Source: an uncultured Chthonomonadaceae bacterium (GTDB lineage: Bacteria > Armatimonadota > Chthonomonadetes > Chthonomonadales > Chthonomonadaceae). From it: 64,000 nucleotides of DNA. The translations under genes were made by a program, and so were the position numbers. The stretch covers positions 160,001 through 224,000 of the forward strand of contig CAWFQB010000011.1 in the NCBI GenBank assembly GCA_963817895.1. Direction: 5' to 3'. Below the pieces are notes generated by a model. The model was not told the origin of the DNA and made no database searches. It saw only the letters and a list, made by a program, of their open reading frames with translations. Below are positions 34,989 to 54,331 of this stretch, piece by piece; position 1 is the first letter of the stretch; each line of letters begins with the position of its first letter.

Positions 34989-37900
34989 TCACTGCCCGGA
35001 GCCATTGAGTATGAATGTCGCCCAGAAGTAGGGGCGCGGGTTACGTTTCAGCGCCCGGATTTGCGCTTCGCGCAGGGCTGCCGCTAAAGTCTTTTTGCCT
35101 TTGGCGGCCTTCCATGCGCGATAGAAGTCCAGTAGGAGTTCCGCCGATGGCTTATCCTGCACGACCCACAGCGACATCAGCACATTGTTCGCCCCCGCTG
35201 TCAGAAATGCCCGCGCCACGCTCTGAACCCCTTCAAACTGGCTTTCTGCTCCTGTTCCTGTTTCGCAGGCCCACAAAACTACCAGATGCGCGTTTGTTCT
35301 CATACGCATGATTTGCCACACATGAAGCAGGCCGGTATCTTTGGAATTTGGCGTCAATGCCAGACTTGAATTTAAGGAATCCCGGCTGTCTGCAAGGCCG
35401 TGACAGCCCACATGCAGAATATCCACGTCCACGCACTTTGCCGTCAGATTGGAAATCGTCGCTTGTTCCCCGGTCAGCACAAGGGAGTGAGGCGCGTAGA
35501 GTTTGCCTACCTGCTTCGCCACTGTTCCCGTTTCCTGTAATTGCTGCCGTGTCCCGCCCATGATTGTCACACGCGCATAGGCAGACGACTTTGCCGCCCC
35601 GGTCAGCCGGTAAGCGGGATTGCCGACAGCCAGAACTTTCGGGTTTGTGATTTGTCGCGCGGAATGCAGGCTGCGGTAGATGGTCAGGGAACCGACGACA
35701 CTCACGGGCAGTTTCTCAATGAGAAAATGTCCATCTTTGGGCATCAATGCAGCAAAGGGAACATTATGCAGCGGCCCGTCCGGGCAAATCACAAGCGCGT
35801 CGGCATGGTTGATTTCTTCCTGCGCGGGCGAGAGAAGCTGGCGGTAAAGGTCTTTCAAAACGGGCGTGTACTTATGTGGCGTACTGTTGATGTTGGCGTA
35901 AATACGGCGCGCGTTGGTGACTTGCCGGACCAACAGGTCGCGCGATACAGACAGGCGATAAGAACGAAAACGTGTTCGCGTGAGGGTAAAGAGATACGTC
36001 TGCCTGTCATCGGTCGCGAAAGCCAGCGCGAGCGTTCCCGGCGGCAGAGCTTGCTTTGCCGCTTCCACATCAATCGGCTGCGGGGTTTCTATCGCGGAGA
36101 TGCGCGGCAAAGCCAGGCCCAGATCGGCATCCAACTGACGTTGCTGAACTTCCAGCGCTTGCAGCGATTGGCGCAGAGGTTCTTCCCGGTTGGTTTCATG
36201 GTTTGCCTGCGCCTGCTGAAGTTCAGTTTCCTGAACGCGTCGGCGATCATCGAGGGCAAGTTGTTGGTCCCGAAATTTCGGCGGCAGTTGATAAACCAGA
36301 TCCCGGTAGCGTTTCGCCATGCTGTCAACAAGCGAGCGCGCATGAATATGTTCCAGTACGCCAAAAGCTTTTTCCGGCTGATCCAGAGACAGGTAGGTTT
36401 GCATCAGCCCCGTAAACGCCTCGGCGTTTTGCTGCACGAGGAAGGCGCGCGTTTCCAGGCTGAAAATTGCCTGCCGCTGATTGTCCAGGAGGGAGGTGGC
36501 TTTCTCAAAATAAGACAGCGCGTCTTTGGGCTGCTGTTGGCGCAGGAGAATTTGCCCTAAAAGCGTTTGGATTTTGGCTTCTGCAAATGTCCCGCCGGTT
36601 TTTTTCATTATCACCAGCGCTTCTTCACACAACTGGCGGGCTGCTGTCAACCGCTTTTGCGACAAAGCAACCACTGCCAGCCCCGTGAGACTGGCGACCA
36701 TACCCGGTAATTCAGGTAAGACTTGCTTCCAGATTGCGCGCGCCTGTTGAAAGTAATCTTTAGCCTGTTTCAAGTTTCCCAGACTATCGCTTGTCAACCC
36801 CAGGCCGTTGAGGACAGCAGCCTGCCGCGCAGAAGCGGGCGCGAACTGCAAAATAGCATTGACCTCTTCATAATGTTTCTGGCACTGTTGAAACTCTCCC
36901 CGCGCTAATTCCACCAGTCCCAACAACAAAACAAGATTCCATTTTTCAGGGGAATTAAAAGCCAGTTTATTCGCCAGCGCCAGTCCCTCCCGGTAATGAG
37001 TTTCGGCGCTTTCCAGATCGCCCTGAATGGCCGCAATCAGCCCTTGTGTGCTGAGAAGATCAAGGCGACTGGCAACCGTAGGAGGAGAGGACTTGCGCCA
37101 CAAGGCAAGAGTCTGCTGAATATAAAATTGCGCTTTGCGCGTGTTGCCCTGCATCGCCATAATACGCGCCAGGCTGCTGGTAAGGGACGCGAGCGTATCC
37201 CACGCGCCCGAGTATCTCCTACGACAAAGCGCAAGGGCCTGTTCGTATTCCTTGCGCGCCAGTGCCGTCTTGCCCGAAGCGGCAGTCACAGTACCGAGGT
37301 CACTAAGGCAGTTCACCATATTCGGCGAATCGGGCGCGTGTTTCTGAAACAAAGCTCGCGCTGTTGAATAGCTGTCAAGGGCGTTTTGTATCTTTGTCTC
37401 GTAAACGGCGATGATACCCATGTGACAATAACTGTCTCCCATGCTTACCGAGTCCGGAACCAGCCGATTTCGGATATTGAAGGCAGCAGTGAATAGTTCG
37501 CGCGCCTTTGCCATGTGTATGGGCATGCTCAACATATAAAAGGCTCCGCCGCCATCCGGTGTCGTCATAACGAACTGAATAGTTCCTCGCAAATCCAGAG
37601 ATTCCGCCATGCTCATTTCGTCATGGCAGGCGGCTGCCAGGGGATAAGCGCGTTCCAGGCATTTGTAGGCATCGGGCAGCTTGTGAAGATTGAGATTGCG
37701 AACGGCAATGCCCATCATGGTAATTGCCTGCGCTTCCCTATCTGTTCCGCGCGCGACGATTTGCCACAAGCGCTGCGCCCATTTCAAAGCTGCTCGTATG
37801 CTGGCATCCTTGCTTTTCTGCGGCAAAAAATTGTTATTATCCAGGGCGAATGCGGCGTAGTTGTCCGAAATCACAGTACACAAAAAGGCGGAACTCTGCG

Positions 37901-38402
37901 TATCGGATGCGGCTTCGGCTCGCCGAAAGGCGGTAATCCAGGGCGCAGACGCCGCCATCCATTGCTTCGCTTCGTGCCGCTTCAGCCCGACACGATACAA
38001 AGACAAAATATTCGTAGGAAGCTGAGGACGGAAAATCCATTTTTCCTCGTTGATTGACGTCATATCGCCGGAGTTTACCATCACCTCGAGTATCCGCTTG
38101 CCGCGCCGGACTGTCATCTTCACTTGCGATTGCGCGACAACATTGCCAATAGCCGCGCCGAAAGCAGCGAATGAATGTATGGGACGATCCCGATATTGGA
38201 GTACGACATCGCCGGGCATCAGCCCCGCTTTTGCTGCGGCTGTGTTGGGGAGCACTAATTCGAGGACAACTTCGGCAGGAGCGGAGGCGCGGGAAGCTTG
38301 GCCGTGTAAGCCGGAGGCGGAACAGGCGGCAATGCAGAACAGGCCGCTCAAATGTCCCAACCATAGAAGAACCAGGAGGAAACGATGGCAAGAAAACAGC
38401 AT
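34989..38402 (-). CDS. Exported PDZ-TPR-CHAT (caspase-like) protease
   Basis: Signal/lipobox 'IAAC', PDZ 'AAKAGLMPGDVV', TPR array, 'PDGPLHNVPFAAL', catalytic 'LHVGCHG' and 'VVLWACETG', and 'PYFWATFILNG'. Confidence 0.9.
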   Translation of the reverse strand: MLFSCHRFLLVLLWLGHLSGLFCIAACSASGLHGQASRASAPAEVVLELVLPNTAAAKAGLMPGDVVLQYRDRPIHSFAAFGAAIGNVVAQSQVKMTVRRGKRILEVMVNSGDMTSINEEKWIFRPQLPTNILSLYRVGLKRHEAKQWMAASAPWITAFRRAEAASDTQSSAFLCTVISDNYAAFALDNNNFLPQKSKDASIRAALKWAQRLWQIVARGTDREAQAITMMGIAVRNLNLHKLPDAYKCLERAYPLAAACHDEMSMAESLDLRGTIQFVMTTPDGGGAFYMLSMPIHMAKARELFTAAFNIRNRLVPDSVSMGDSYCHMGIIAVYETKIQNALDSYSTARALFQKHAPDSPNMVNCLSDLGTVTAASGKTALARKEYEQALALCRRRYSGAWDTLASLTSSLARIMAMQGNTRKAQFYIQQTLALWRKSSPPTVASRLDLLSTQGLIAAIQGDLESAETHYREGLALANKLAFNSPEKWNLVLLLGLVELARGEFQQCQKHYEEVNAILQFAPASARQAAVLNGLGLTSDSLGNLKQAKDYFQQARAIWKQVLPELPGMVASLTGLAVVALSQKRLTAARQLCEEALVIMKKTGGTFAEAKIQTLLGQILLRQQQPKDALSYFEKATSLLDNQRQAIFSLETRAFLVQQNAEAFTGLMQTYLSLDQPEKAFGVLEHIHARSLVDSMAKRYRDLVYQLPPKFRDQQLALDDRRRVQETELQQAQANHETNREEPLRQSLQALEVQQRQLDADLGLALPRISAIETPQPIDVEAAKQALPPGTLALAFATDDRQTYLFTLTRTRFRSYRLSVSRDLLVRQVTNARRIYANINSTPHKYTPVLKDLYRQLLSPAQEEINHADALVICPDGPLHNVPFAALMPKDGHFLIEKLPVSVVGSLTIYRSLHSARQITNPKVLAVGNPAYRLTGAAKSSAYARVTIMGGTRQQLQETGTVAKQVGKLYAPHSLVLTGEQATISNLTAKCVDVDILHVGCHGLADSRDSLNSSLALTPNSKDTGLLHVWQIMRMRTNAHLVVLWACETGTGAESQFEGVQSVARAFLTAGANNVLMSLWVVQDKPSAELLLDFYRAWKAAKGKKTLAAALREAQIRALKRNPRPYFWATFILNGSGQ

Positions 38403-38525
38403 AATGTATCCCCATGCTCAGAGCAGAGTTCAGCGCGCAAACCGGATTAGATTATTGTTGGAAACCTGACAGTCGTAACAGGTATGTTCAGTATGGCATA
38501 TAAGGGGTTGCGCCGACAAACCGGC

Positions 38526-40282
38526 CTATTCCACGCCGTGAAAACCGGAGTGGTACAGGCCGATTTTTCTTGCCACAGCCTCAAACCGGGAATTAGAGCG
38601 CAGACTGATGAAGCGTGGGTCAATGTGAATCAACACCAGATCGCCGGGATGTTCGTTCAGGGCCAAGTCTAAACAATCCAGAGCGGCCTCCGGCTCCTCC
38701 AACCCGAGATAAATAGTGGATAGGGCGACGGGAGAAACATAACAGCCTTCGGTTTCGCGCTGTTCTTTCAATTGTTCCAGCAGTTCGCGTGATTTCTCGC
38801 GCTCGCCTGCCTTCGCATAGGCATGGGCAATGCCTGCGACAAAGAGGGGTTTTGCGGACCTTCCAGCATATCATCCAACTCAATAGCGTGATGGAACGCC
38901 CGCAATGCCTCGTCGAATTTATCTTTCGCGTCCTCCGTCAGCCCAATCTCCTCGCACATAAGCGCCTGCTGTTCGTATGCTTTCCCCAGACAATAATGAA
39001 CCAGGCAGTAGCGGGGCGCGTCTTTCAGAGCGTCCCGGTACTTTTCAATGGCATACGCATACAGGCGCTTGTAGTGGTATCGCTCGCCCACGCTTTTGCT
39101 CAAAACCCCGCTTTGCGGCTCCAGATCGCAGGCGGTATTGATCTCTTCCAGGCTTTGCTGCGTGTTGCCCTGTAGCATCAGGAGGTAACTGTACCATTGA
39201 TGGGCCGTTTCGTTGTCCGGGTTTAGCAGCAGCGCTTCAATAAAGGCCTCTTCCGCTTCCACCCACTCCCAATCATAAATCATTTTAATCCAGGCGTCCG
39301 CCGTCAGTATCGCGGATTGGGCAATATCCGACACCCTGCCCGTTGTTTGCCCGGCCGCCTGCACCCAGGTTTTGGCCTGAGCCGCCGCTACGCGAGGTTC
39401 CAGATAACTGTAATAGCCGAGCATGCTGTACGCATCCGCCATTCCCGCATACGCGAGGGCATAGTTCGGGTCGGCCTCTATCGCCTTCTGAAACCAGGCC
39501 AAGCTCTCCTGCAAGGCTCCCTCGGCGCGTATCTTCCACAGTCGCCGTCCCTGATTATAAGCGGCCACGGCTTTGGGGTTAATGACAGAGATGGGCGGGA
39601 TGTAAGGAAACGGCCTGGGCAGCCACGATGCCGGCGGTTCCGCTGTGGGCGTCTCATTCCCATGTTCCAGAAGCGCGCATTCGTCTGAGGAGAGCGGCGA
39701 GGCGTTGGCCGCGTGTTCTTCGCACATATTGGCGAGTTCCGGCAGGGACAGTTCGCGGAACAAGCCGCACAGCGTTTCAAGCGCCTGAACGAACTTAGCC
39801 CGGTAATCCGAACGCGCCTTTGCGATCCAGTCGTATTCCTGCGTGTCCGAATAACCCAGCAAAAACTCGCCCCGGTACAGTCTTGCGGCTGCCGTCAGCG
39901 CTTTGATCTTTGCCGGGGCGTCTGTGGCTTTGTCCGCTTCTTTGAGATGCTGGTTGAAATCGTCAATATCCCGCGTGAACAACTCCGAAAGCAGGCCCAG
40001 AGTGCCATCGCGCGGGCTTTGCAGCAGGGTATCCGGCGACAGTTTGGGCATCCCTAATATTCGGGTCAGCCTGAGCAGCGCCTGTGAAAGATTGTTGTCG
40101 CCATCATCGGAAAGCGGCCAGAATTTCACGGCAAGGCTTGCGCGGCTATGCTTGCCCCTGTTGTAGGCCAGAAACGCGAGCAACTGGCAATGCTTGTTGC
40201 GATGAATACCCGGCACAATTTCCTTATTTCGCGTTACCTCGAACGTTCCCAGCATTTTGAAATGCCAGCGCTCCTCGATCAT
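38526..40282 (-). CDS. SARP/BTAD transcriptional regulator with C-terminal TPR array (frameshift near 38830)
   Basis: 'MLGTFEV', 'LLAFLA', 'NLSQALLRL', 'LYRGEFL.G....W', then TPRs 'DPNYALAYAGMADAY' and 'YDWEW..AE'. Confidence 0.8.
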
Positions 40283-43397: not shown

Positions 43398-44366
43398 ATG
43401 GACTGGCTGTTTCATAATCCCATTGGCGAGATGTATGGCCCAACGTTTCTGATGGTCTACGGCATTGTGATTGTAACCACGCTGACTGCCTGTTACCATG
43501 CTGCGCGATGGAACAGCGCGGGAGGAAACGCTCCGCCTTCCGTACCCGCCAACCCCGACCCGTATGAGATCGCGTATCTGCGCGGCAGTGAGAATGAAGT
43601 GATACGGCTGGCGATTTTCCGTTTGATGCAGGCCGGGTATTTGCAGGCGGCTGGCGACAGGGCAGATAAACTCCGCAGTGTCGATTCGCCCGTTTCTGCC
43701 CGCGCATTGTCCGCGATAGAAGCGCAGGTACTGGCCTATTTCAGCGCGCCGCGTGGGGCAGGGGAGATATTCGCGTCTGCGTTGCCCGGACGTATCCGAG
43801 AGTCGTGCGGCGACTATGAGGAGTGGTTGAGCGCGGCAGGGTTGCTGAACGGGCGACAGGCCGACGAACACGCCCGCCGCGTCTTCTGGATCGGCGCGAT
43901 GGCGATCTTCGGATTGGGAAGTTACAAACTGGTGGCGGCAGTGAACAACGGCCACTACAACATCGGCTTCCTGATTGTCATGGGAGTAATTTCGCTGCCG
44001 CTGCTGATAGGCGTTTGCCATCTGCCGCGCCTGAGCGCGTCGGGGAAACGGTATCTGGAACAATTGCAAATCGCGTTCAGCGGCTTGCGAACACGCCTGT
44101 CGGACGACAAGTTAAATGGCAGAGACGATGAGCAGGTGCTGTCTGTAGCCCCTCTCGCGCTGGCCGTGTTCGGAGTTGGCGTTCTGGCGGCCACGCCCTA
44201 TACGGATTATCATCAGATGTTCCAGAAGGCGGCAAACGCGCCCGTGAGCGCGGGGGGCTGTGGCGGCGCAAGCAGTTGTGGTGGAGGGGGTTGCGGTGGA
44301 GGCGGCGGGTGCGGCGGTGGTGGTTGTGGTGGTGGTGGCTGCGGGGGGTGTGGCGGCGGAGGGTAA
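43398..44366 (+). CDS. TIGR04222-like membrane protein with a Gly/Cys-rich C-terminal tail
   Basis: 'MYGP.FL..Y', 'DPYEIAYLRG', 'HYNIGFL', several TM helices and the tail GGCGGASSCGGGGCGGGGGCGGGGCGGGGCGGCGGGG; AAGGAGG RBS. Confidence 0.85.
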   Translation: MDWLFHNPIGEMYGPTFLMVYGIVIVTTLTACYHAARWNSAGGNAPPSVPANPDPYEIAYLRGSENEVIRLAIFRLMQAGYLQAAGDRADKLRSVDSPVSARALSAIEAQVLAYFSAPRGAGEIFASALPGRIRESCGDYEEWLSAAGLLNGRQADEHARRVFWIGAMAIFGLGSYKLVAAVNNGHYNIGFLIVMGVISLPLLIGVCHLPRLSASGKRYLEQLQIAFSGLRTRLSDDKLNGRDDEQVLSVAPLALAVFGVGVLAATPYTDYHQMFQKAANAPVSAGGCGGASSCGGGGCGGGGGCGGGGCGGGGCGGCGGGG

Positions 44367-44444
44367 GAAAGCGGAAAATGGCAGACTTGTTTGCTATTTC
44401 ATTCTTATTCAAATGATTAGTTGAAACAGCGCGAAAGGAACATT

Positions 44445-45353
44445 ATGCGGCAGGAGGTTGCTTTGCAAACTAAGGGCAGGATGGCAGCGGCAGACGCGCC
44501 ATTTGTGGGAATACAAACACAGAATTCGGCTCTGCCTGTTCTGGGTGTCGGGCTTGGGATGCGCGAACCGTTTCTGAGCGACATATTCCTGCATCGGCAG
44601 GAGATAGATTTTCTGGAAATTATCGCCGACCACTATTTTGAGGCCACGCCGCGCAAAGCGGAAGAATTGGAACTGCTGCGGGCGCATTTCCCGCTTGTGC
44701 CGCACGGTCTGGATTTGTCGCTCGGCAGCGCGGACGGGCTGGACAGTTCATATCTGGAACGCATGGCAAAACTGGTGAATGCTCTCAATCCGCCCTGGTG
44801 GAGCGAACATATCGCGTTTACCAGAGCCGGGGGCGTGGACATCGGGCATTTGTGCGGGATGCCGTTTACTCGCGAAGCGCTGGATACCCTCTGCCGCAAC
44901 ATCAGGCAGGCGCAGGAACAGATTGCCGCGCCCCTGATTCTGGAAAATATCACGTATACGATGCAATGGCCGGACGCGGAAATGAGCGAATCGCAATTTC
45001 TGACGGAACTGGTCACGCGAACGGATTGCGGCCTGCTCCTCGACATCACCAATCTGTACACCAATGCGGTAAACTGGGGTTACGACCCCTGCACGTTTCT
45101 AAATGAGTTGCCGCTGGAAAAAGTGGTTCAATTCCATTTTGTCGGCGGCGAGTGGCAGGGCAATGAGTTGATTGACAGCCATTCGCAGGCCACGCCGCCC
45201 GAAGTGTGGCAGCTGATGGAAGAAGCCTGCAAGCGTACATCAGTCAAAGGTATCCTGCTGGAGCGCGACGAAAACCTGCCGCCGTTCGGGGAAATCACTG
45301 GCGAACTGGCGCGGGCAAAGGAGATTGGAAGGCGGCAGGGGAAATGGGATTGA
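44445..45353 (+). CDS. DUF692 multinuclear non-heme iron-dependent oxidase (MNIO)
   Basis: 'GVGLGMR', 'LEIIADHY', 'HGLDLSLGS', 'WSEHIAF', 'LILENI', 'LLLDITNLYTN', 'HFVGG', 'IDSH' and 'LLERD'. Confidence 0.93.
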   Translation: MRQEVALQTKGRMAAADAPFVGIQTQNSALPVLGVGLGMREPFLSDIFLHRQEIDFLEIIADHYFEATPRKAEELELLRAHFPLVPHGLDLSLGSADGLDSSYLERMAKLVNALNPPWWSEHIAFTRAGGVDIGHLCGMPFTREALDTLCRNIRQAQEQIAAPLILENITYTMQWPDAEMSESQFLTELVTRTDCGLLLDITNLYTNAVNWGYDPCTFLNELPLEKVVQFHFVGGEWQGNELIDSHSQATPPEVWQLMEEACKRTSVKGILLERDENLPPFGEITGELARAKEIGRRQGKWD

Positions 45354-46040
45354 GCGAGATGCAGCGCGGACTGGCCCTCCTGTTGACGGATGCAGACATG
45401 CGCGAACGGTTTGCCGCCGATCCGCGAGGCGTAGAGCAGACACTGAACTTGAGCGCGGAAGAAATGGCGCAACGGGCGTTGCCGGCAGGCGCGGAGGTGG
45501 AACGCTTCGCCTGTTCGCTGCGCGCAAAGCGGTGGAACGAGATTCAAAAGTTGCTGCCGATTTCCACTCAGGGGGCGCAAAGCGTTGGGGTTCCGTTGCG
45601 GCGCGCGTTTTTGCGATTCGCGCAGGGGTATGTGCCGCAGGGAAGCAAGCGTCACGCGCAGGACGCGCTTGCTTTCGCCGATTGGGTAGGGCGGCAGCCG
45701 AAAGAAACGTTTCAAGATGCTGTCGGTACACATCATAAGGCGAACGCCGCATGGCTGCCCGACTTGATACGCTACGAGGCGGCGTGGCTGGAAATGCAGA
45801 TCACGCCCGCGCGCTTCTGGATGTTGCGCCGATTTTCGTATCCCGTTCCCCTGCTGGCGCGCGCTCTGTCCCAATCTCAACCAGGGGACGCGACATTGGA
45901 GAGTTTACTACCCGGTCAATTATCCGCCCGAACCATTTTTATTATCTGGCTGCGCCTGTCGCCGAATGGCAGGCTGCGCAACTGTAAGTTTGTCTCTGCC
46001 CGCGCCCGCCGCAAGTTCCGCCGCGCTGAAGATCTCATAA
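45344..46040 (+). CDS. MNIO partner protein (DUF2063/RRE-like role); 3' end uncertain
   Basis: Start overlaps the MNIO stop; 'MQRGLALLLTD...R.RF..DP', 'FA.SL..KR' and 'DLIRYEAAWL...F.YPV'. Confidence 0.7.
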
Positions 46041-46057
46041 AATATAAGGAAAAATCC

Positions 46058-47293
46058 ATGTTTCTGCTGAATTCCCGTTTCCATTGTCTGGCTTTTACGT
46101 CTGCGCTGTTGCTGTCGCTGTCCGGCTTGCCGGTTCGGGCGGAAGAGCCGTTCGCGTCCGGCAGTTTCCAATCCGCCTGCGCCCTTGCGGGCAAAACCAA
46201 ACGCATTGTTGTCGTGGATTTTTATACGACGTGGTGCGGGCCGTGCAAAAAGCTGGATGAGACGACGTGGAAAGACAAGACCGTACGGGCGTGGCTGACA
46301 CAAACCGCTATCAGTCGCAAGGTAGACGCGGAAAAGCAGACCGCGCTGGCGGCCAAATACAAAATCGGCGCGTATCCCACCATTCTGCTGCTCAAGCCCG
46401 ATGGAACCGAGATTGACCGCCTGATAGGGTTTCTCGACCCCAAAACGTTTCTCACGGAAGTGAAACAGGCGCTTGCGGGGAAGGACAGCATCGCCCGCGC
46501 CAGATTGAAAATGAACGCCAAAGGCAAGGATGACGCGATGGAGCGGATGAACTACGCCGACGCGCTGGCGCAGAAAGGCCGCAATGCCGACGCGCTTAAA
46601 GAGTATCTATGGTGTCTGGATGAGGGCAACAAGCATACTCCGGGCTTTTACGGCGTCCGGCTCTCGTTTCTGTTGAGCGACATTATGCGACTCGGCGAGC
46701 AATACCCGCCCGCGCTGACGGCTCTCAAACAGCGCCGGGACGCGGCTCGCGCCGCCCTTATAAAAGGTTCCGCCGACACCGACATTGCGGCGGATTTCGC
46801 TTCATACAATGAAAACCTGGGGCAGCAGGCGGATACCCTGACCGTTTACGACCGCATCAAATCCCAAAAATCGCAGGCTTCCACGTCTCTGTTTCGTTCC
46901 ATTTCCCCCCTGCTTTTGGAACAGAAACGCTATGATGACCTGATTGACGGAACCGTAAACCTTTCGGCGTATATGGATATGGAACTTGCCACTTTCAAAC
47001 TGATGAGCGCGAACGCGCAAATAGACAAGCGAACCGTCGCGTATATGAAGGGGGAACTGGTGAAATCCATGGGCGGCTACTACGAGGCGCTGTTGGGAAC
47101 CGATAAAACGACGGAAGCGGACGAATTGCGCGACAAACTGCTGGCGTTCGATGGCGGCGCGGCCACGTATGGCGAGTTGATGCGCCATGCCACGCGGGCA
47201 GGCAAGCCCGAAGCCGCGCAGAAGCTGAAAGAAGCCGCCAAAACCGCGCTTAGCGCTGACGGCTATGCCCAACTGGAAAAAGCGCAACCCTGA
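46058..47293 (+). CDS. Exported thioredoxin-domain protein with a helical/TPR-like C-terminus
   Basis: Own AAGGA RBS and ATG, signal peptide ending 'VRA', 'VDFYTTWCGPCK' and 'YPTILLL'. Confidence 0.82.
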   Translation: MFLLNSRFHCLAFTSALLLSLSGLPVRAEEPFASGSFQSACALAGKTKRIVVVDFYTTWCGPCKKLDETTWKDKTVRAWLTQTAISRKVDAEKQTALAAKYKIGAYPTILLLKPDGTEIDRLIGFLDPKTFLTEVKQALAGKDSIARARLKMNAKGKDDAMERMNYADALAQKGRNADALKEYLWCLDEGNKHTPGFYGVRLSFLLSDIMRLGEQYPPALTALKQRRDAARAALIKGSADTDIAADFASYNENLGQQADTLTVYDRIKSQKSQASTSLFRSISPLLLEQKRYDDLIDGTVNLSAYMDMELATFKLMSANAQIDKRTVAYMKGELVKSMGGYYEALLGTDKTTEADELRDKLLAFDGGAATYGELMRHATRAGKPEAAQKLKEAAKTALSADGYAQLEKAQP

Positions 47294-48871: not shown

Positions 48872-51800
48872 ATGAGTTTAACTTCCGCGCGTCCCCCCGC
48901 TTGATACTGGCCGCGCTGGCCGCCTGCTGTCTGTCCCCCGCAGTCGGGGCGCAAAATAAGCCCGCGTCCCCGCCCCCGCGCCCCCCGGCGCGCGCTCGCC
49001 GGGAACCAACGCGCAGGGGACGCCCGCGCCGCCCGCGATTACGCCCGAAATCCAGAAAAGCCATCGCGCAGTTTCAAACCGCCGCGAAATTTCAGCAGGA
49101 GCGCAAAATTCCGCAGGCGATTGCCGCGTATCAGGAGTTTCTCCGGCTTGGCGCGCAGGCCAAAATGAGCGACAGCATGATGCTGCCCGCGTATGACAAC
49201 CTGTTTCGCCTGTACCAGTCGCGGCAGGACGCGAAGGGCATGGAATCCACGCTCGGCCACCTTGCCCAATCCATGCCGCAAAATCCGGGTATTCAGGTGG
49301 AGTACGCCCTGCTGTATCTGGGACAGAAACGCTTTGACGAGGCGGAAAAAAGCGCGGATAAAACGCTGACATTGAAGCCGCCCCCGCCGCTTGGCAGCGC
49401 AGGCGCATTTTGTTAAGGGCGCTGTCGCCCATACCCGCAAGCAGTGGAGCGTGGCGGAAAAAGAGTACGCACCTCCCTGACGCTGGTTCCGGGCAACCCG
49501 CAAGTGTTGTTCAATCTGCTTCAAGCGCAAAACGAAGAGAAGAAGACCCTTCCGGCCATTAAAACGGCGGAAAAACTGGTGAAAGTCGCGCCCCGCATGG
49601 TTCCCGCGTGGCTGCTGCTGGCGACTCTGCGGCAGCAGAACAAAGATTTGCCCGGCGCGATTTCCGCTTACAACGGCGCGTTGAAAGCCGAACCCAACAA
49701 CCGAGTCGCCCTGTTCAACCGCGCCCTGCTCGCGCAGCAGTTGCTGCGCGTGGATGAGGCTATCAGCGGATATGCCGCGTATCTGGAAATCGCGCCCGAC
49801 GATTTTACCGCCCACTACAATTTGGGGCTGCTGTATGCGGAACTGCGCAACTACGCGGGAGCGCGCAAACATTTCGGCGCGGCGGCAGGCGTAAAGCCCA
49901 AAGAGGCCCGCGCGCTGTATCAGTGGGCGTTGAGTGAGCGCGAAGCCGGGTTTGCCCTGCCGGCGGAAGCCCCCGAACAAACTTGCTTGCGCAGTCCGTC
50001 GTTCACTTCAAACAGGCCATCGCGCTGGAGCCGAAGAATGTAGACATGCAGGACCAACTCGCCGCCCTGTATGAGCGCGACAACCACTTTGAGGAGGCCG
50101 TCGCGCTGTTCAAGCAGCGGCAGGCGCAAGACCCGGATAATCCTGAAACCTATCAGCGGCTGACTACGGCGTATACAGGGATGCGGCGACTGGACGACGC
50201 CATTGCCGAGTGGCGCAAATACCGCAGCCGCAAGCCCAACGACCCCCTATCCTATGGCGAAATCGCCAAACTGTGGGAGGGCAGCAGCAAATGGCAGGAG
50301 GCGCGCGACGAGCGGCTGGAACAGATCAAACTGGACCCGAAAGACGGCGTTGCCAAACTCAGCCTTGCCCACGATTACAGCCAACTGAAGCAGCCCGACA
50401 ACGCGGCTTCCGAGTACCGGCTGGTACTGGATTTGGACGTGAGCGCGAAGGATATTGGCGACAGGGAGCGTATGTATATCGCCGCCGCTCGCCGCAACTG
50501 GCGCGTGAAAGCGTGGCAGGGGCTGTCGGAAATCTCCTCAGACGCGGGTAAATACGAGGATGCGATTGCCTATCTGCGCAACGTGCAGGAGGATGCGATA
50601 CAGCAGGCGAAGCGCGACCAGAAACCCGCCGACGCGCAAACGTATCTCGACATCGCCAACCTGTACGAACGCGCCAACCAGTCCGAACCGGCGCGTAAAG
50701 AGTTGAAAGCCCTGACCGATATGCGCCCGGACGATGCCGTAGTGTTTGCCGCGCTGTCCGATTTCGAGGAGCGGCACGGGCAGACCGAGGCTGCTGTCAC
50801 GGCTCTGCGTCGGGCCGAAGAGCGCGCCGCCGACCCGGTTGTTTACGGCCTGCAAATCGCCGGTTTGTACCGGAAGCACAACCTGCCTGACAAAGCCATT
50901 GCGGAATACGTGCGCCTGCTGGAAAAACACCCGAAAGAGGCGCGAATTGAGGAGCCGTATGCCGCGTATCTTGGGCAGGCGGGCAACGATTCTCGCGCCC
51001 TCGTCCTGTACGATGCGCTGCTGAAGGCCAATCCGAAAGACATACAACTGCTGGACAAAAAGGCCAACGCGCTGACTCGCCTGAAACGCTACCCAGAAAG
51101 CATCGCGGTACGCGAAAAAATTGTGGACGCGCAGCCGGAAGTGTATCAGGGGTATGCCGCCCTGTTGAATCTGTACACGTTGGAAAACAGGCCGGAAGCG
51201 TACCGGCAGTGGCTTGGCAGCCGCGTGGAAAAAGACCCCGGCAATCTGCCCGCGATGGCCGCTCTCGTGGATGCGTACGAGCAGCAAAAAATGGACGACG
51301 AGGGCTGGAAACTGGTTCGGGGCATTGTTCAAAAGCACAGGAGCGACCCCGAAGTTCAGCAAACCTTTGTTAATGTGCTTTCGCAGCATAACCGGATGGA
51401 GGAGGCCATCGGCGTACAGCGCGAAATGGCGCATTTGAGGCCCAACGATCTGGACGCGCATATCAAACTGGCCGACCTGCTGGCAGGCAGCGGCAATCCG
51501 GGCGAAAGCAACAAAGTGTTTCTGACTATGAGCGACGACGCGAATGTGTCCCTTGCGATACGGACGCAGGCGCGGCGCGTCCTCGCGAAGCGGCTGGAAA
51601 ATCAGGTCAAACTGGAAGACGCGATTGAGCAGTACAAAGCCGTCGTGAAAGCGGAACCGGGGGATTTGACCTCCACATTCGCGCTCGGACGCCTGCTGAT
51701 ACAAATGGGACACGATCAGGAAGCCATCGCCTATTACACCGAACATGCCGGGGAAACCAAATCACCCCTGCTGCGCGCGTATTATCTGGTACGATTGGGC

Positions 51801-52010
51801 GGCATTTACGAGAAGCAGGGGCATAAGGATGAGGCGCTAAAGCAGTATCACGAAGCGCAGCGCGTATATCCGCAAAATGAGGAGGTCGGTGGGGCCATTC
51901 AGCGGCTCATGCAGGCCAAGCAGGATAACAGCAAACCTTCAATCCCGAACACGGGAGATAAAAAGCCTGTCAACGCGACAAATGACACCGGAAAACCGAC
52001 AGGAAAATAG
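48872..52010 (+). CDS. Large exported TPR-repeat protein (frameshifted)
   Basis: Signal peptide and continuous TPR motifs across ORFs 48832-49416, 49444-50043 and 49983-52010. Confidence 0.8.
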
Positions 52011-52801: not shown

Positions 52802-54331
52802 TTGACCACTGTGCCTTCCGCATCCGGCAGTTCCGCCGTTCCCGCTCTGGAAATGCGCCACATCAGCAAGTAGTATCCCGGCGTTCAGGCGCTCGAAGAC
52901 GTGTCGCTGACCGTGCGGCGAGGGCGAAATCCACGCCCTGCTCGGCGAGAACGGCGCGGGCAAGTCCACGCTGATGAAGATTCTGGCGGGCGCGGAGCAT
53001 CGGGACGGCGGCGAAATTCTGCTTGACGGGCAGCCCGTCACCATTGACAGCCCGCAGAAGGCGATGGAGCTGGGCATCTCCATCATCTATCAGGAGTTCA
53101 ACCTCGTGCCCTATCTCAGCGCGGGCGAAAACATCTATCTGGGCCGCGAACCCCGCGCCGCCCTGCCCGGCTTCGTGGATTTCAAGACGCTGTACCGGGA
53201 CGCGCAGAAGGTGATTGACGCGCTGGGCGTTCGCATTGACGCCCGAACGCCCGTCAACCAACTCAGCGTGGCGCAGCAGCAGATGGTCGAAATCGCCAAG
53301 GCGACCAGCAAAAAGTCGCAGAATCATCGTGATGGACGAGCCGAGCGCGACCCTGACCGACCACGAACTTGTCGCGCTGTTCGGCCTGATGCGGCAACTG
53401 AAAAGTCGAGGGCGTCAGCATCGTCTATATTTCGCACCGGCTGGAAGAGGTTTTCGAGGTGTGCGACCGGGCGACCATCATGCGCGACGGAACTCATATC
53501 GCCACAATGGACGTGAAAGACCTGACCCGCGACGAGATCATCCGCCTGATGGTCGGGCGCGAACTGAAGGACGCGATTCCCAAAGTGGCCGCGCCGCTCG
53601 GCGCTCCCGCGCTTGCCGTGAAAACATCTGAACCGAACGGGCGTTCTGCACGACATCAATTTCGAGGTGCGGCAGGGCGAAGTGCTGGGCATTGCGGGAC
53701 TGGTGGGCGCGGGGCGCACGGAAACCGCCCGGGTCATCTTCGGGGCCGACCCGCTGGACAGCGGCACGATTGAGGTGTTCGGCAAGCCCGTCACCATCCG
53801 GTCGCCGCAGGACGCCATCAAGCACGGCATCGGCCTGGTCACGGAGGATCGCAAACAGCAGGGGCTGGTGCTGGGCATGGCCGTGCGCGAAAACAACACG
53901 CTCGCCAATCTTGGAGCGCTGTCGGTCGCTGGGCTTCATCAAGCGCAATGAGGAGAGGAAGGTGGCGGAAAAGTACACGGCAGAGCCTTGCCATCAAAAC
54001 GCCGACGATCGAGCAGACCGTGCAGAACCTGTCGGGCGGCAATCAGCAGAAAGTGGTTCTGGCGAAATGGCTGTTCACCGGCTCCAAAATTCTGATTTTC
54101 GACGAGCCGACGCGCGGCATTGACGTGGGCGCGAAAAGCGAAATCTACAAACTGATGAACGAACTGGCCGCGAAGGGCGTCGCCATCATCATGATCTCGT
54201 CGGAACTGCCGGAAGTGCTGGGCATGAGCGACCGTATTCTGGTCATGCACGAGGGCCGCATCACGGGCGAACTGTCCCGCGCCGAAGCCACGCAGGAAAA
54301 AATCATGACGCTGGCAACCGGCGGCGAGTAA
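52802..54331 (+). CDS. Sugar ABC transporter ATP-binding protein, RbsA-like (frameshifted)
   Basis: '[16 protein letters not shown]', 'MDEPSATL', 'GLVGAGRTE', 'LSGGNQQKV' and '[12 protein letters not shown]'. Confidence 0.93.

Follow-up and report, generated by a model that had tools for sequence, protein, structure and literature searches.

Antoine et al. (2025, Microb Genom; PMC12452194), as far as the available text of that paper goes, described in silico clusters comprised of a TIGR04222 membrane protein, an MNIO (DUF692) enzyme and a partner of PME-type 2, proposed the tail of the membrane protein as the substrate, and left tail modification, including MNIO action on an integral membrane protein, for investigation. 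More than 3,500 TIGR04222 proteins are known according to the same source, and a full-text search for the family gave that paper, its preprint and PMC5183585, where it is mentioned once. Here we analyse such a trio in an uncultured Chthonomonadaceae bacterium of the phylum Armatimonadota, within a stretch of 64,000 nucleotides (assembly GCA_963817895.1, contig CAWFQB010000011.1, positions 160,001 to 224,000), hereafter the window. The cassette is real, intact and widespread, and it belongs to the class already predicted in 2025, with which it shares the genes, their order, a Gly/Ser-Cys tail and the lack of DUF2063. The best explanation overall, to which we assign a probability of roughly 70%, is a protein-modification cassette acting on the tail of an intact membrane protein. 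Beyond the 2025 prediction we add two predictions of our own, namely the side of the membrane on which the tail lies and the helix gripped by the MNIO. The open reading frames (ORFs) and elements of the cassette are as follows.

43398..44366, + strand: TIGR04222 membrane protein (ORF A), 322 residues, candidate MNIO substrate, from profile score and fold model
44037..44102, + strand: helix following the third membrane helix of ORF A (residues 214-235), predicted MNIO docking site, from the co-fold interface and conservation
44253..44363, + strand: disordered Gly/Cys tail of ORF A with seven Cys and a CGGCG motif at its end, from sequence, predicted local distance difference test (pLDDT) values and homologues
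44445..45353, + strand: MNIO/DUF692 enzyme (ORF B), 302 residues, metal-ligand motifs intact, from PF05114 and the BufB/HvfB profiles
45344..46040, + strand: MNIO partner (ORF C), PME-type 2 with a TglI-like fold, from fold comparison; homologous part about residues 1-215

Among the characterised systems, the MNIOs of bufferins, oxazolins and captophorins (BufABC, HvfABC, FonABC) are the closest by score; like ORF A, their precursors carry several Cys, and their Lys-Cys-Gly targets resemble the Gly-Cys-Gly found here. BufB and HvfB give 5-thiooxazole products that bind copper, according to the accessible parts of PMC12452194, 10.64898/2026.07.17.739211 and PMC13097082. The precursors of these systems are soluble peptides, bear Sec signal peptides and have DUF2063 (PME-type 1) partners, whereas our candidate precursor is an integral membrane protein with a type 2 partner. 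The locus falls outside these groups, since its MNIO scores below the BufB and HvfB cut-offs and the cassette has no DUF2282-type precursor or DUF2063 partner; profile searches for DUF2282 and DUF2063 gave no match in the genome, which is 81% complete.

Other described systems share single traits with the locus. In the portions available of PMC13056109, an MNIO was shown experimentally to act at the C-terminal end of a protein larger than 30 kDa (MelA1), and lipid-anchored MNIO products that stay on the membrane (DAG-RiPPs) were demonstrated as well, so that membrane retention and modification of the C-terminus of a large protein, as proposed here, both have precedents. The DAG-RiPPs acquire a lipid anchor through a lipoprotein signal whereas ORF A has membrane helices, and MelA1 has a ChrH-subfamily enzyme and a CPACGMG motif, in contrast to ORF B with just 64 bits on ChrH. 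The TglHI pair of the pearlin pathway is similar in that our partner shares the TglI fold, but the substrate of TglH is a scaffold peptide to which a single C-terminal Cys has been added, and the enzyme removes the beta-carbon of that residue (PMC12452194 and PMC10989515, in the text available), whereas seven gene-encoded internal Cys are present here. Finally, DUF2207/DUF2207_C proteins such as SMU.243 resemble ORF A by a weak profile match and a Gly/Ser-rich C-terminus, and differ in that ORF A is devoid of their large extracellular N-terminal domain, carries Cys in the tail and has a linked modifying enzyme. ORF A scores 14.9 bits on DUF2207_C (PF20990), under the gathering cut-off of 33, and a weak match was found in 35 of 47 homologues (E up to 0.05; best E 4e-9); by these scores TIGR04222 is a distant relative of DUF2207_C and not a member.

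The sequence-only reading of the window had described three co-oriented genes, the first ending in a seven-Cys tail; they are present at 43398-44366, 44445-45353 and from 45344 on. The profile searches that it recommended gave clear matches for both families. ORF A scores 93.5 bits against the TIGR04222 profile (curated cut-off 43), and three transmembrane (TM) helices are predicted at about residues 14-38 (TM1), 162-183 (TM2) and 190-207 (TM3), with a predicted soluble domain between TM1 and TM2. The fold model has a mean pLDDT of 86.5 and places a helix at residues 269-280, followed by a flexible linker up to the first tail Cys; residues 285-322 are below 50 except for one. The tail Cys occupy positions 288, 294, 299, 305, 310, 315 and 318, and the final residue is Gly. 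In an alignment of 58 homologues (from 63 candidate sequences, near-duplicates excluded), 47 carry the CGGCG motif in the tail, the median tail has 6 Cys, and G or S precedes the Cys in 341 of 352 cases; the linker preceding the tail is highly variable in sequence and length among loci. At least three Cys within the last 50 residues were likewise found in 135 of 150 representatives gathered irrespective of MNIO. Within the genome the tail pattern is unique to ORF A, being present in 1 of 107,787 stop-to-stop segments (at least 40 residues long; last 40 residues with at least 4 Cys and at least 20 Gly/Ser). Comparison of the full ORF A model, from which the soluble domain was not folded separately, with solved structures gave no Foldseek match at E ≤0.001, and the structural matches obtained were generic three-helix bundles covering TM1-TM3 (best Z 10.8). 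A scan for promoters and terminators gave a signal near the level of shuffled sequence; among the sequencing runs listed in a search for the locus, no RNA run appeared, and no run contained half of the sequence words.

ORF B was confirmed as an intact DUF692 enzyme with the expected ligand motifs. It scores 301 bits against PF05114 (cut-off 25), and the columns of its motifs (H87, S120-E121-H122, E167-N168, D200-x-x-N203, H231, D244-x-H246 and E273-R274-D275) are invariant or nearly so across the 58 homologues; N203, D244 and H246 correspond to N175, D242 and H244 of HvfB when matched by motif rather than by direct alignment. Its profile matches the structures 3BWW, TglH and MbnB. The family scores are 248 bits for BufB, 212 for HvfB, 112 for ApyH, 64 for ChrH and 49 for MbnB, so that BufB and HvfB are the nearest named families by profile score; the closest named relative, with 87% MNIO identity, is from the Chthonomonadaceae. 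The partner, whose ATG at 45344 overlaps the final codons and stop of the MNIO gene, has a confidently predicted fold over residues 1-215 (pLDDT 90) that matches TglI (Z 11.8, rmsd 3.6, 190 aligned residues; Foldseek E 8e-4) and NGO1945 (Z 8.4, rmsd 3.0, 123 aligned), the next-ranked match having Z 5.7. It follows the MNIO, has the TglI/NGO1945-like fold and has no DUF2063 signature (no PF09836 match), and thus fits the PME-type 2 definition given in the available text of PMC12452194; a profile search against solved sequences gave nothing useful. In 4 of 67 loci compared the partner is naturally fused to the MNIO. These fusions (L076, L080, L086 and L090; 477-512 residues) come from Methylocystis and other Alphaproteobacteria, and would be convenient single-chain enzymes for tests.

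The linkage between the three genes is the first line of evidence for the tail as substrate. The cross-genome check proposed earlier supported co-occurrence: starting from the MNIO, a TIGR04222-like gene was found within 2 kb in 60 of 67 loci and the partner downstream in 65 of 67, in hosts that, by record title, span Armatimonadota, cyanobacteria, planctomycetes, verrucomicrobia, Methylocystis and others. Of the 60 TIGR04222-bearing loci, 54 satisfied a strict spacing rule, 5 more have the gene upstream by inspection and 1 is divergent; the remaining 7 loci comprise a contig end, a broken MNIO and five MNIO-partner pairs alone. Among 68 genomes of the class, TIGR04222 is over its cut-off in 10, an MNIO is present in 12 and both in 9; each of these nine has one MNIO, and the two genes are adjacent in seven and both at contig ends in two. 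The flanking genes of the cassette differ even within a genus. Sequence and comparison show that the membrane protein, the MNIO and the TglI-like partner are inherited as one unit across phyla. The genome itself contains a single TIGR04222 match and a single MNIO match by profile search. The intergenic distances of 46 and 78 nucleotides leave no visible room for a small precursor between the genes, and no other MNIO substrate candidate was detected in the genome among the families tried.

The second line of evidence is an exchange of the modifying enzyme. We surveyed relatives with an ORF A profile in three phyla (301 genomes each) and with a single-protein query in metagenomes (4 loci), and, with one duplicate and one 1-kb fragment removed, obtained 56 proteins from 55 loci; because MNIO-linked sequences went into the profile and three of the loci served as search centres, the set leans towards MNIO. 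There are 47 proteins with at least three tail Cys: an MNIO is the neighbour of 22 of them and a radical S-adenosylmethionine (SAM)/SPASM enzyme that of 8 (four of these confirmed by NCBIfam, two identical), 14 belong to the long forms, for which we saw no enzyme in the surrounding 1.5 kb or so, and 3 have nothing. No surveyed locus has both an MNIO and a radical SAM gene in the stretch inspected, mostly 1.5 kb on each side, and no MNIO match was found in the three Armatimonadota genomes with radical SAM-linked TIGR04222 genes. In a quick tree of the core sequences the MNIO- and radical SAM-linked proteins are interleaved, and its well-supported branches force at least three changes of the radical SAM label. 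Two unrelated maturase families thus alternate beside one scaffold, from which we argue that the tail is a substrate. Radical SAM/SPASM genes beside Cys-tailed TIGR04222 genes include the following.

L128, 5306-6538: radical SAM/SPASM gene
L129, 8047-9192: radical SAM/SPASM gene
L130, 9082-10248, - strand: radical SAM/SPASM gene
L121, 4855-6009: radical SAM/SPASM gene

We also considered these radical SAM partners as thiooxazole makers; this idea comes only from the NCBIfam name of SbtM and is not relied on, since SbtM ranks first for two of the four proteins but with scores well short of its cut-off and near those of other families.

The third line of evidence is a predicted complex. Co-folding of the MNIO, the partner and ORF A gave a score of 0.64, with 0.02 for the best control and also when the MNIO was replaced. 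Among solved complexes 116 of 157 attain this mark, and among mismatched pairs 2 of 215, counts that are only rough for a three-chain job with custom alignments. The runs share at least 30% of contacts, with a partner pLDDT of at least 69. In the confident contacts, MNIO residues 42-52 and 70-81 (full-length numbering) meet residues 221-233 and 45-53 of ORF A, the latter being a Pro-rich linker after TM1; both regions of ORF A are inside by the charge rule described below. One of the closest contacts in the prediction involves position 226, where a charged or amide residue occurs in 2 of 21 MNIO-linked proteins, 5 of 8 radical SAM-linked proteins and 11 of 14 long enzyme-less relatives, which align poorly there; the difference between the first two sets has a Fisher p of 0.008, in genomes that are related and not independent. 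The model supports docking of the MNIO on the post-TM3 helix and the linker after TM1, which we infer to act together as an inbuilt leader, some 55 residues ahead of the first Cys of the tail. In the available text of PMC12452194 we saw neither a docking site nor a radical SAM alternative.

Linkage, the co-fold and the swap to radical SAM enzymes make the tail as substrate the best reading, and we consider it likely that the tail is modified by the MNIO. Should this prove right, cysteine chemistry of the RiPP type would reach polytopic membrane proteins too. The sequence-only reading had reached the same proposal, which holds up on these three grounds but was not new, having been made in 2025 (PMC12452194, in its accessible text).

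Basic residues are known to flank the cytoplasmic side of membrane helices (the positive-inside rule). In the 58 homologues the mean number of Lys and Arg is 0.24 before TM1 and 2.4 after it, 2.5 before TM2, 1.1 for the loop joining TM2 to TM3, and 4.6 following TM3, a pattern that puts the N-terminus of ORF A outside, and the soluble domain and post-TM3 segment inside. Long relatives have an additional basic-then-hydrophobic segment, often ending in LAGC, directly before TM1, and the start of TM1 is therefore placed outside as well. Three membrane helices with the N-terminus out, and with the soluble domain, the post-TM3 helix and probably the tail in the cytoplasm, are thus well supported by charge and hydrophobicity over the homologues, the basis used here in place of a dedicated topology predictor. 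We hold the cytoplasmic placement of the tail itself to be probable.

The alternative that survives best is a variant of the modification cassette, compatible with tail modification, in which a fourth hydrophobic stretch (residues 244-265) crosses the membrane, and the tail is modified before insertion and exposed on the periplasmic side, much as a bufferin on a tether would be. PMC12452194 predicts this topology; its available text uses models of two other proteins to place large domains and the tail in the periplasm, and notes that bufferins sequester copper there. The stretch in ORF A itself is long enough to cross the membrane, with a Kyte-Doolittle value over 19 residues (KD19) of 2.36. 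Across the homologues, however, KD19 exceeds 1.6 in just 36% for this stretch, against 90-100% for TM1-TM3, its mean summed insertion energy is +5.3, and the ORF A model breaks it into short helices at 244-258 and 260-265. The large Gly/Ser-rich C-terminus of DUF2207 homologues is also predicted to lie inside the cell, for which PMC10457818, in its available part, uses the word 'intercellular'. Our evidence thus favours the cytoplasm in contrast to the 2025 models, and a four-helix topology appears unlikely, if far from negligible.

For the cytoplasmic tail we propose the following route. The MNIO would dock at the cytoplasmic face of inserted ORF A, and the partner would bind the MNIO and mainly activate its iron centre, helping it to reach the mixed-valent di-iron state by analogy with HvfC, which does so for HvfB (10.64898/2026.07.17.739211, in the text available). 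The flexible tail would then be fed into the active site, where O2 and a di- or tri-iron centre may oxidise the Cys of Gly-Cys-Gly with a loss of 4 Da each, again by analogy. The oxidised Cys would most likely be 5-thiooxazole, the likeliest product because BufB and HvfB are the closest characterised enzymes by score; overall this assignment has slightly less than an even chance. The tail would remain tethered, and speculatively it may serve as a metal buffer, or as a switch for the membrane protein, by binding copper or a different soft metal at the inner face of the membrane. Function is the weakest step because no metal-related neighbour recurs, and metal buffering is a tentative suggestion that we would not bet on. 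A practical consequence concerns the loss of alkylatable thiols, which had been suggested as a readout: iodoacetamide still alkylates 5-thiooxazole products (PMC13097082, available portion), and the test could therefore be misleading.

Several observations weigh against tail modification or against details of this route. In the co-fold check suggested earlier, the MNIO was indeed placed on ORF A, but the tail and the partner are absent from the confident contacts, and entry into the active site was not modelled. ORF B is under both equivalog cut-offs (BufB 248 against 310, HvfB 212 against 360), the hydrophobicity of the fourth stretch in ORF A would allow a membrane crossing, and among the neighbours of the cassette in the 67 loci there is no recurrent copper gene. 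Five loci (L065, L067-L069 and L073, two on short contigs) have an MNIO and a partner with no adjoining TIGR04222 gene. Fourteen Cys-tailed long forms have no enzyme nearby, and 16 of 20 TIGR04222-positive genomes tested are devoid of MNIO; three of these 16 use radical SAM enzymes, and in most of the others the Cys tail is retained in a shorter form and no enzyme is seen. One third of TIGR04222 genomes are without MNIO according to the available text of PMC12452194. Related genomes in all these counts are not independent samples, and literature searches, in which most subscription journals were not covered, returned no experimental paper on the TIGR04222-MNIO trio.

The enzyme-less proteins, the MNIO-free genomes and the solitary MNIO-partner pairs would all be expected if the tail of a DUF2207-like membrane protein did its work without modification, as a thiol, metal or Fe-S binding segment, and the MNIO docked on the protein but acted on another substrate or only under some conditions. 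The long forms in particular (L105-L117 except L111, L146 and L147; 450-520 residues) keep CGGCG-type tails with 3-5 Cys. This explanation is at odds with the alternation of two unrelated peptide-modifying enzyme families beside the same scaffold, with the lack of another substrate in the genome by the families tried, and with the nine relatives that have fewer than three tail Cys, eight of which (several of them fragments) have no adjoining enzyme, the ninth being a tandem copy beside a tailed gene. We regard an unmodified tail as improbable. The long forms also have a His-rich N-terminal domain with conserved WHLHL and LHH motifs and the hydrophobic segment mentioned above; this domain has no Pfam or NCBIfam name, its Atlas match to UCP032817-like/GRDP-like proteins (0.84-0.88, below 0.9) is a lead only, and it might act on the tail in cis.

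Still less probable is that ORF A serves as a giant leader, its tail being modified and then cut by a housekeeping protease into a free Gly-rich peptide. This would follow the logic of peptides that are made on the ribosome and modified after translation (RiPPs), and a flexible linker lies between helix 269-280 and the first Cys. The wide variation of that linker argues against it, as does the gene neighbourhood, in which clustering of neighbours over the 67 loci, with ORFs not annotated singly, revealed no recurring protease, exporter or copper gene.

The 3' end of the partner gene needs separate comment. The overlap of its ATG with the MNIO stop had been noted correctly, but the end assigned at 46040 does not hold in the given sequence: the TAA spanning 46038-46040 belongs to an adjacent frame, and the partner frame stays open over 45344-47293 (649 residues), through the thioredoxin domain of the next gene.

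46058..47293, + strand: neighbouring thioredoxin-domain (WCGPC) protein, 411 residues

A same-genus partner homologue ends at 213 residues, and a separate ATG for the thioredoxin gene is present at 46058, preceded by a ribosome-binding-site-like AAGGA, with a start that looks signal-peptide-like by eye. A related-strain contig (a single contig of depth 2, which could itself be in error) is without one base at 45986, and two others join the partner and thioredoxin genes out of frame, being 25 nucleotides shorter and 49 longer there (-25 and +49). In full-length homologues of the thioredoxin gene the open frame spans 410-452 residues as compared to 705 here. By a rough count, the assembly splits 4 of 19 test genes over two or more frames. 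Elsewhere in the window, a sugar ABC ATPase gene (52974-54331) is found in several overlapping frames and a TPR gene (49444-52010) is apparently split, which we read as probable signs of indel errors. Because of the 213-residue relative, the out-of-frame TAA, the separate ATG and the related-strain contigs, the read-through is most likely a one-base assembly error near 45986-45991, and the thioredoxin gene is a neighbour rather than a conserved part of the cassette. We therefore reject a real 649-residue fusion keeping the tail Cys reduced for the MNIO as very improbable: the open frame and the adjacency of the two genes in related strains speak for it, and the out-of-frame contigs, homologue lengths, separate start and frame errors listed above, together with its absence from every other locus examined, speak against it.

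Some further observations concern the neighbourhood of the cassette. Neighbour clustering recovered only lineage-level synteny and a nucleotidyltransferase-like gene, often located 5' of TIGR04222 with either an MNIO or a radical SAM gene (L064:787-1557, L129:6437-7177 and L121:3173-3991, among others); none was seen upstream of the cassette in the 64-kb window. Tandem TIGR04222 genes precede one MNIO in L043 (483-2540) and L119 (1381-3536, - strand), the second copy in L119 having no Cys tail. Just 3' of the cassette in L047 (6982-7395) lies a 137-residue ORF with a signal-peptide-like start and 14 Cys, possibly a second substrate there. In a genome of the same order, an 88-residue secreted-looking ORF with CKG repeats (L024:2158-2424) precedes a bufferin-type MNIO. 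A conserved lipoprotein-like ORF (about 180 residues, few Cys) precedes the MNIO in three of the five loci with no adjoining TIGR04222 gene (L065, L067, L068, L069, L073). The same cassette is found in named, apparently cultured hosts, namely Nostoc and Methylocystis species. In the window, DcuC-like and dicarboxylate-symporter genes lie upstream of the cassette, and the stretch 34989-40282 (- strand) holds a BTAD/TPR regulator-like gene beside that of a 1137-residue TPR protein, which we take by eye to be PDZ- and CHAT-like.

A broader version of the modification cassette can be considered, in which the MNIO recognises a folded cytoplasmic helix in place of a leader peptide and turns the seven-Cys tail into a thiooxazole brush at the inner side of the membrane, the radical SAM enzymes, exchanged for it repeatedly and independently, install an equivalent modification without oxygen, and a third group perhaps relies on its His-rich domain in cis; we offer it as a long shot. 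If true, a widespread family of membrane proteins would undergo a general type of post-translational modification for which the enzymes are interchangeable.

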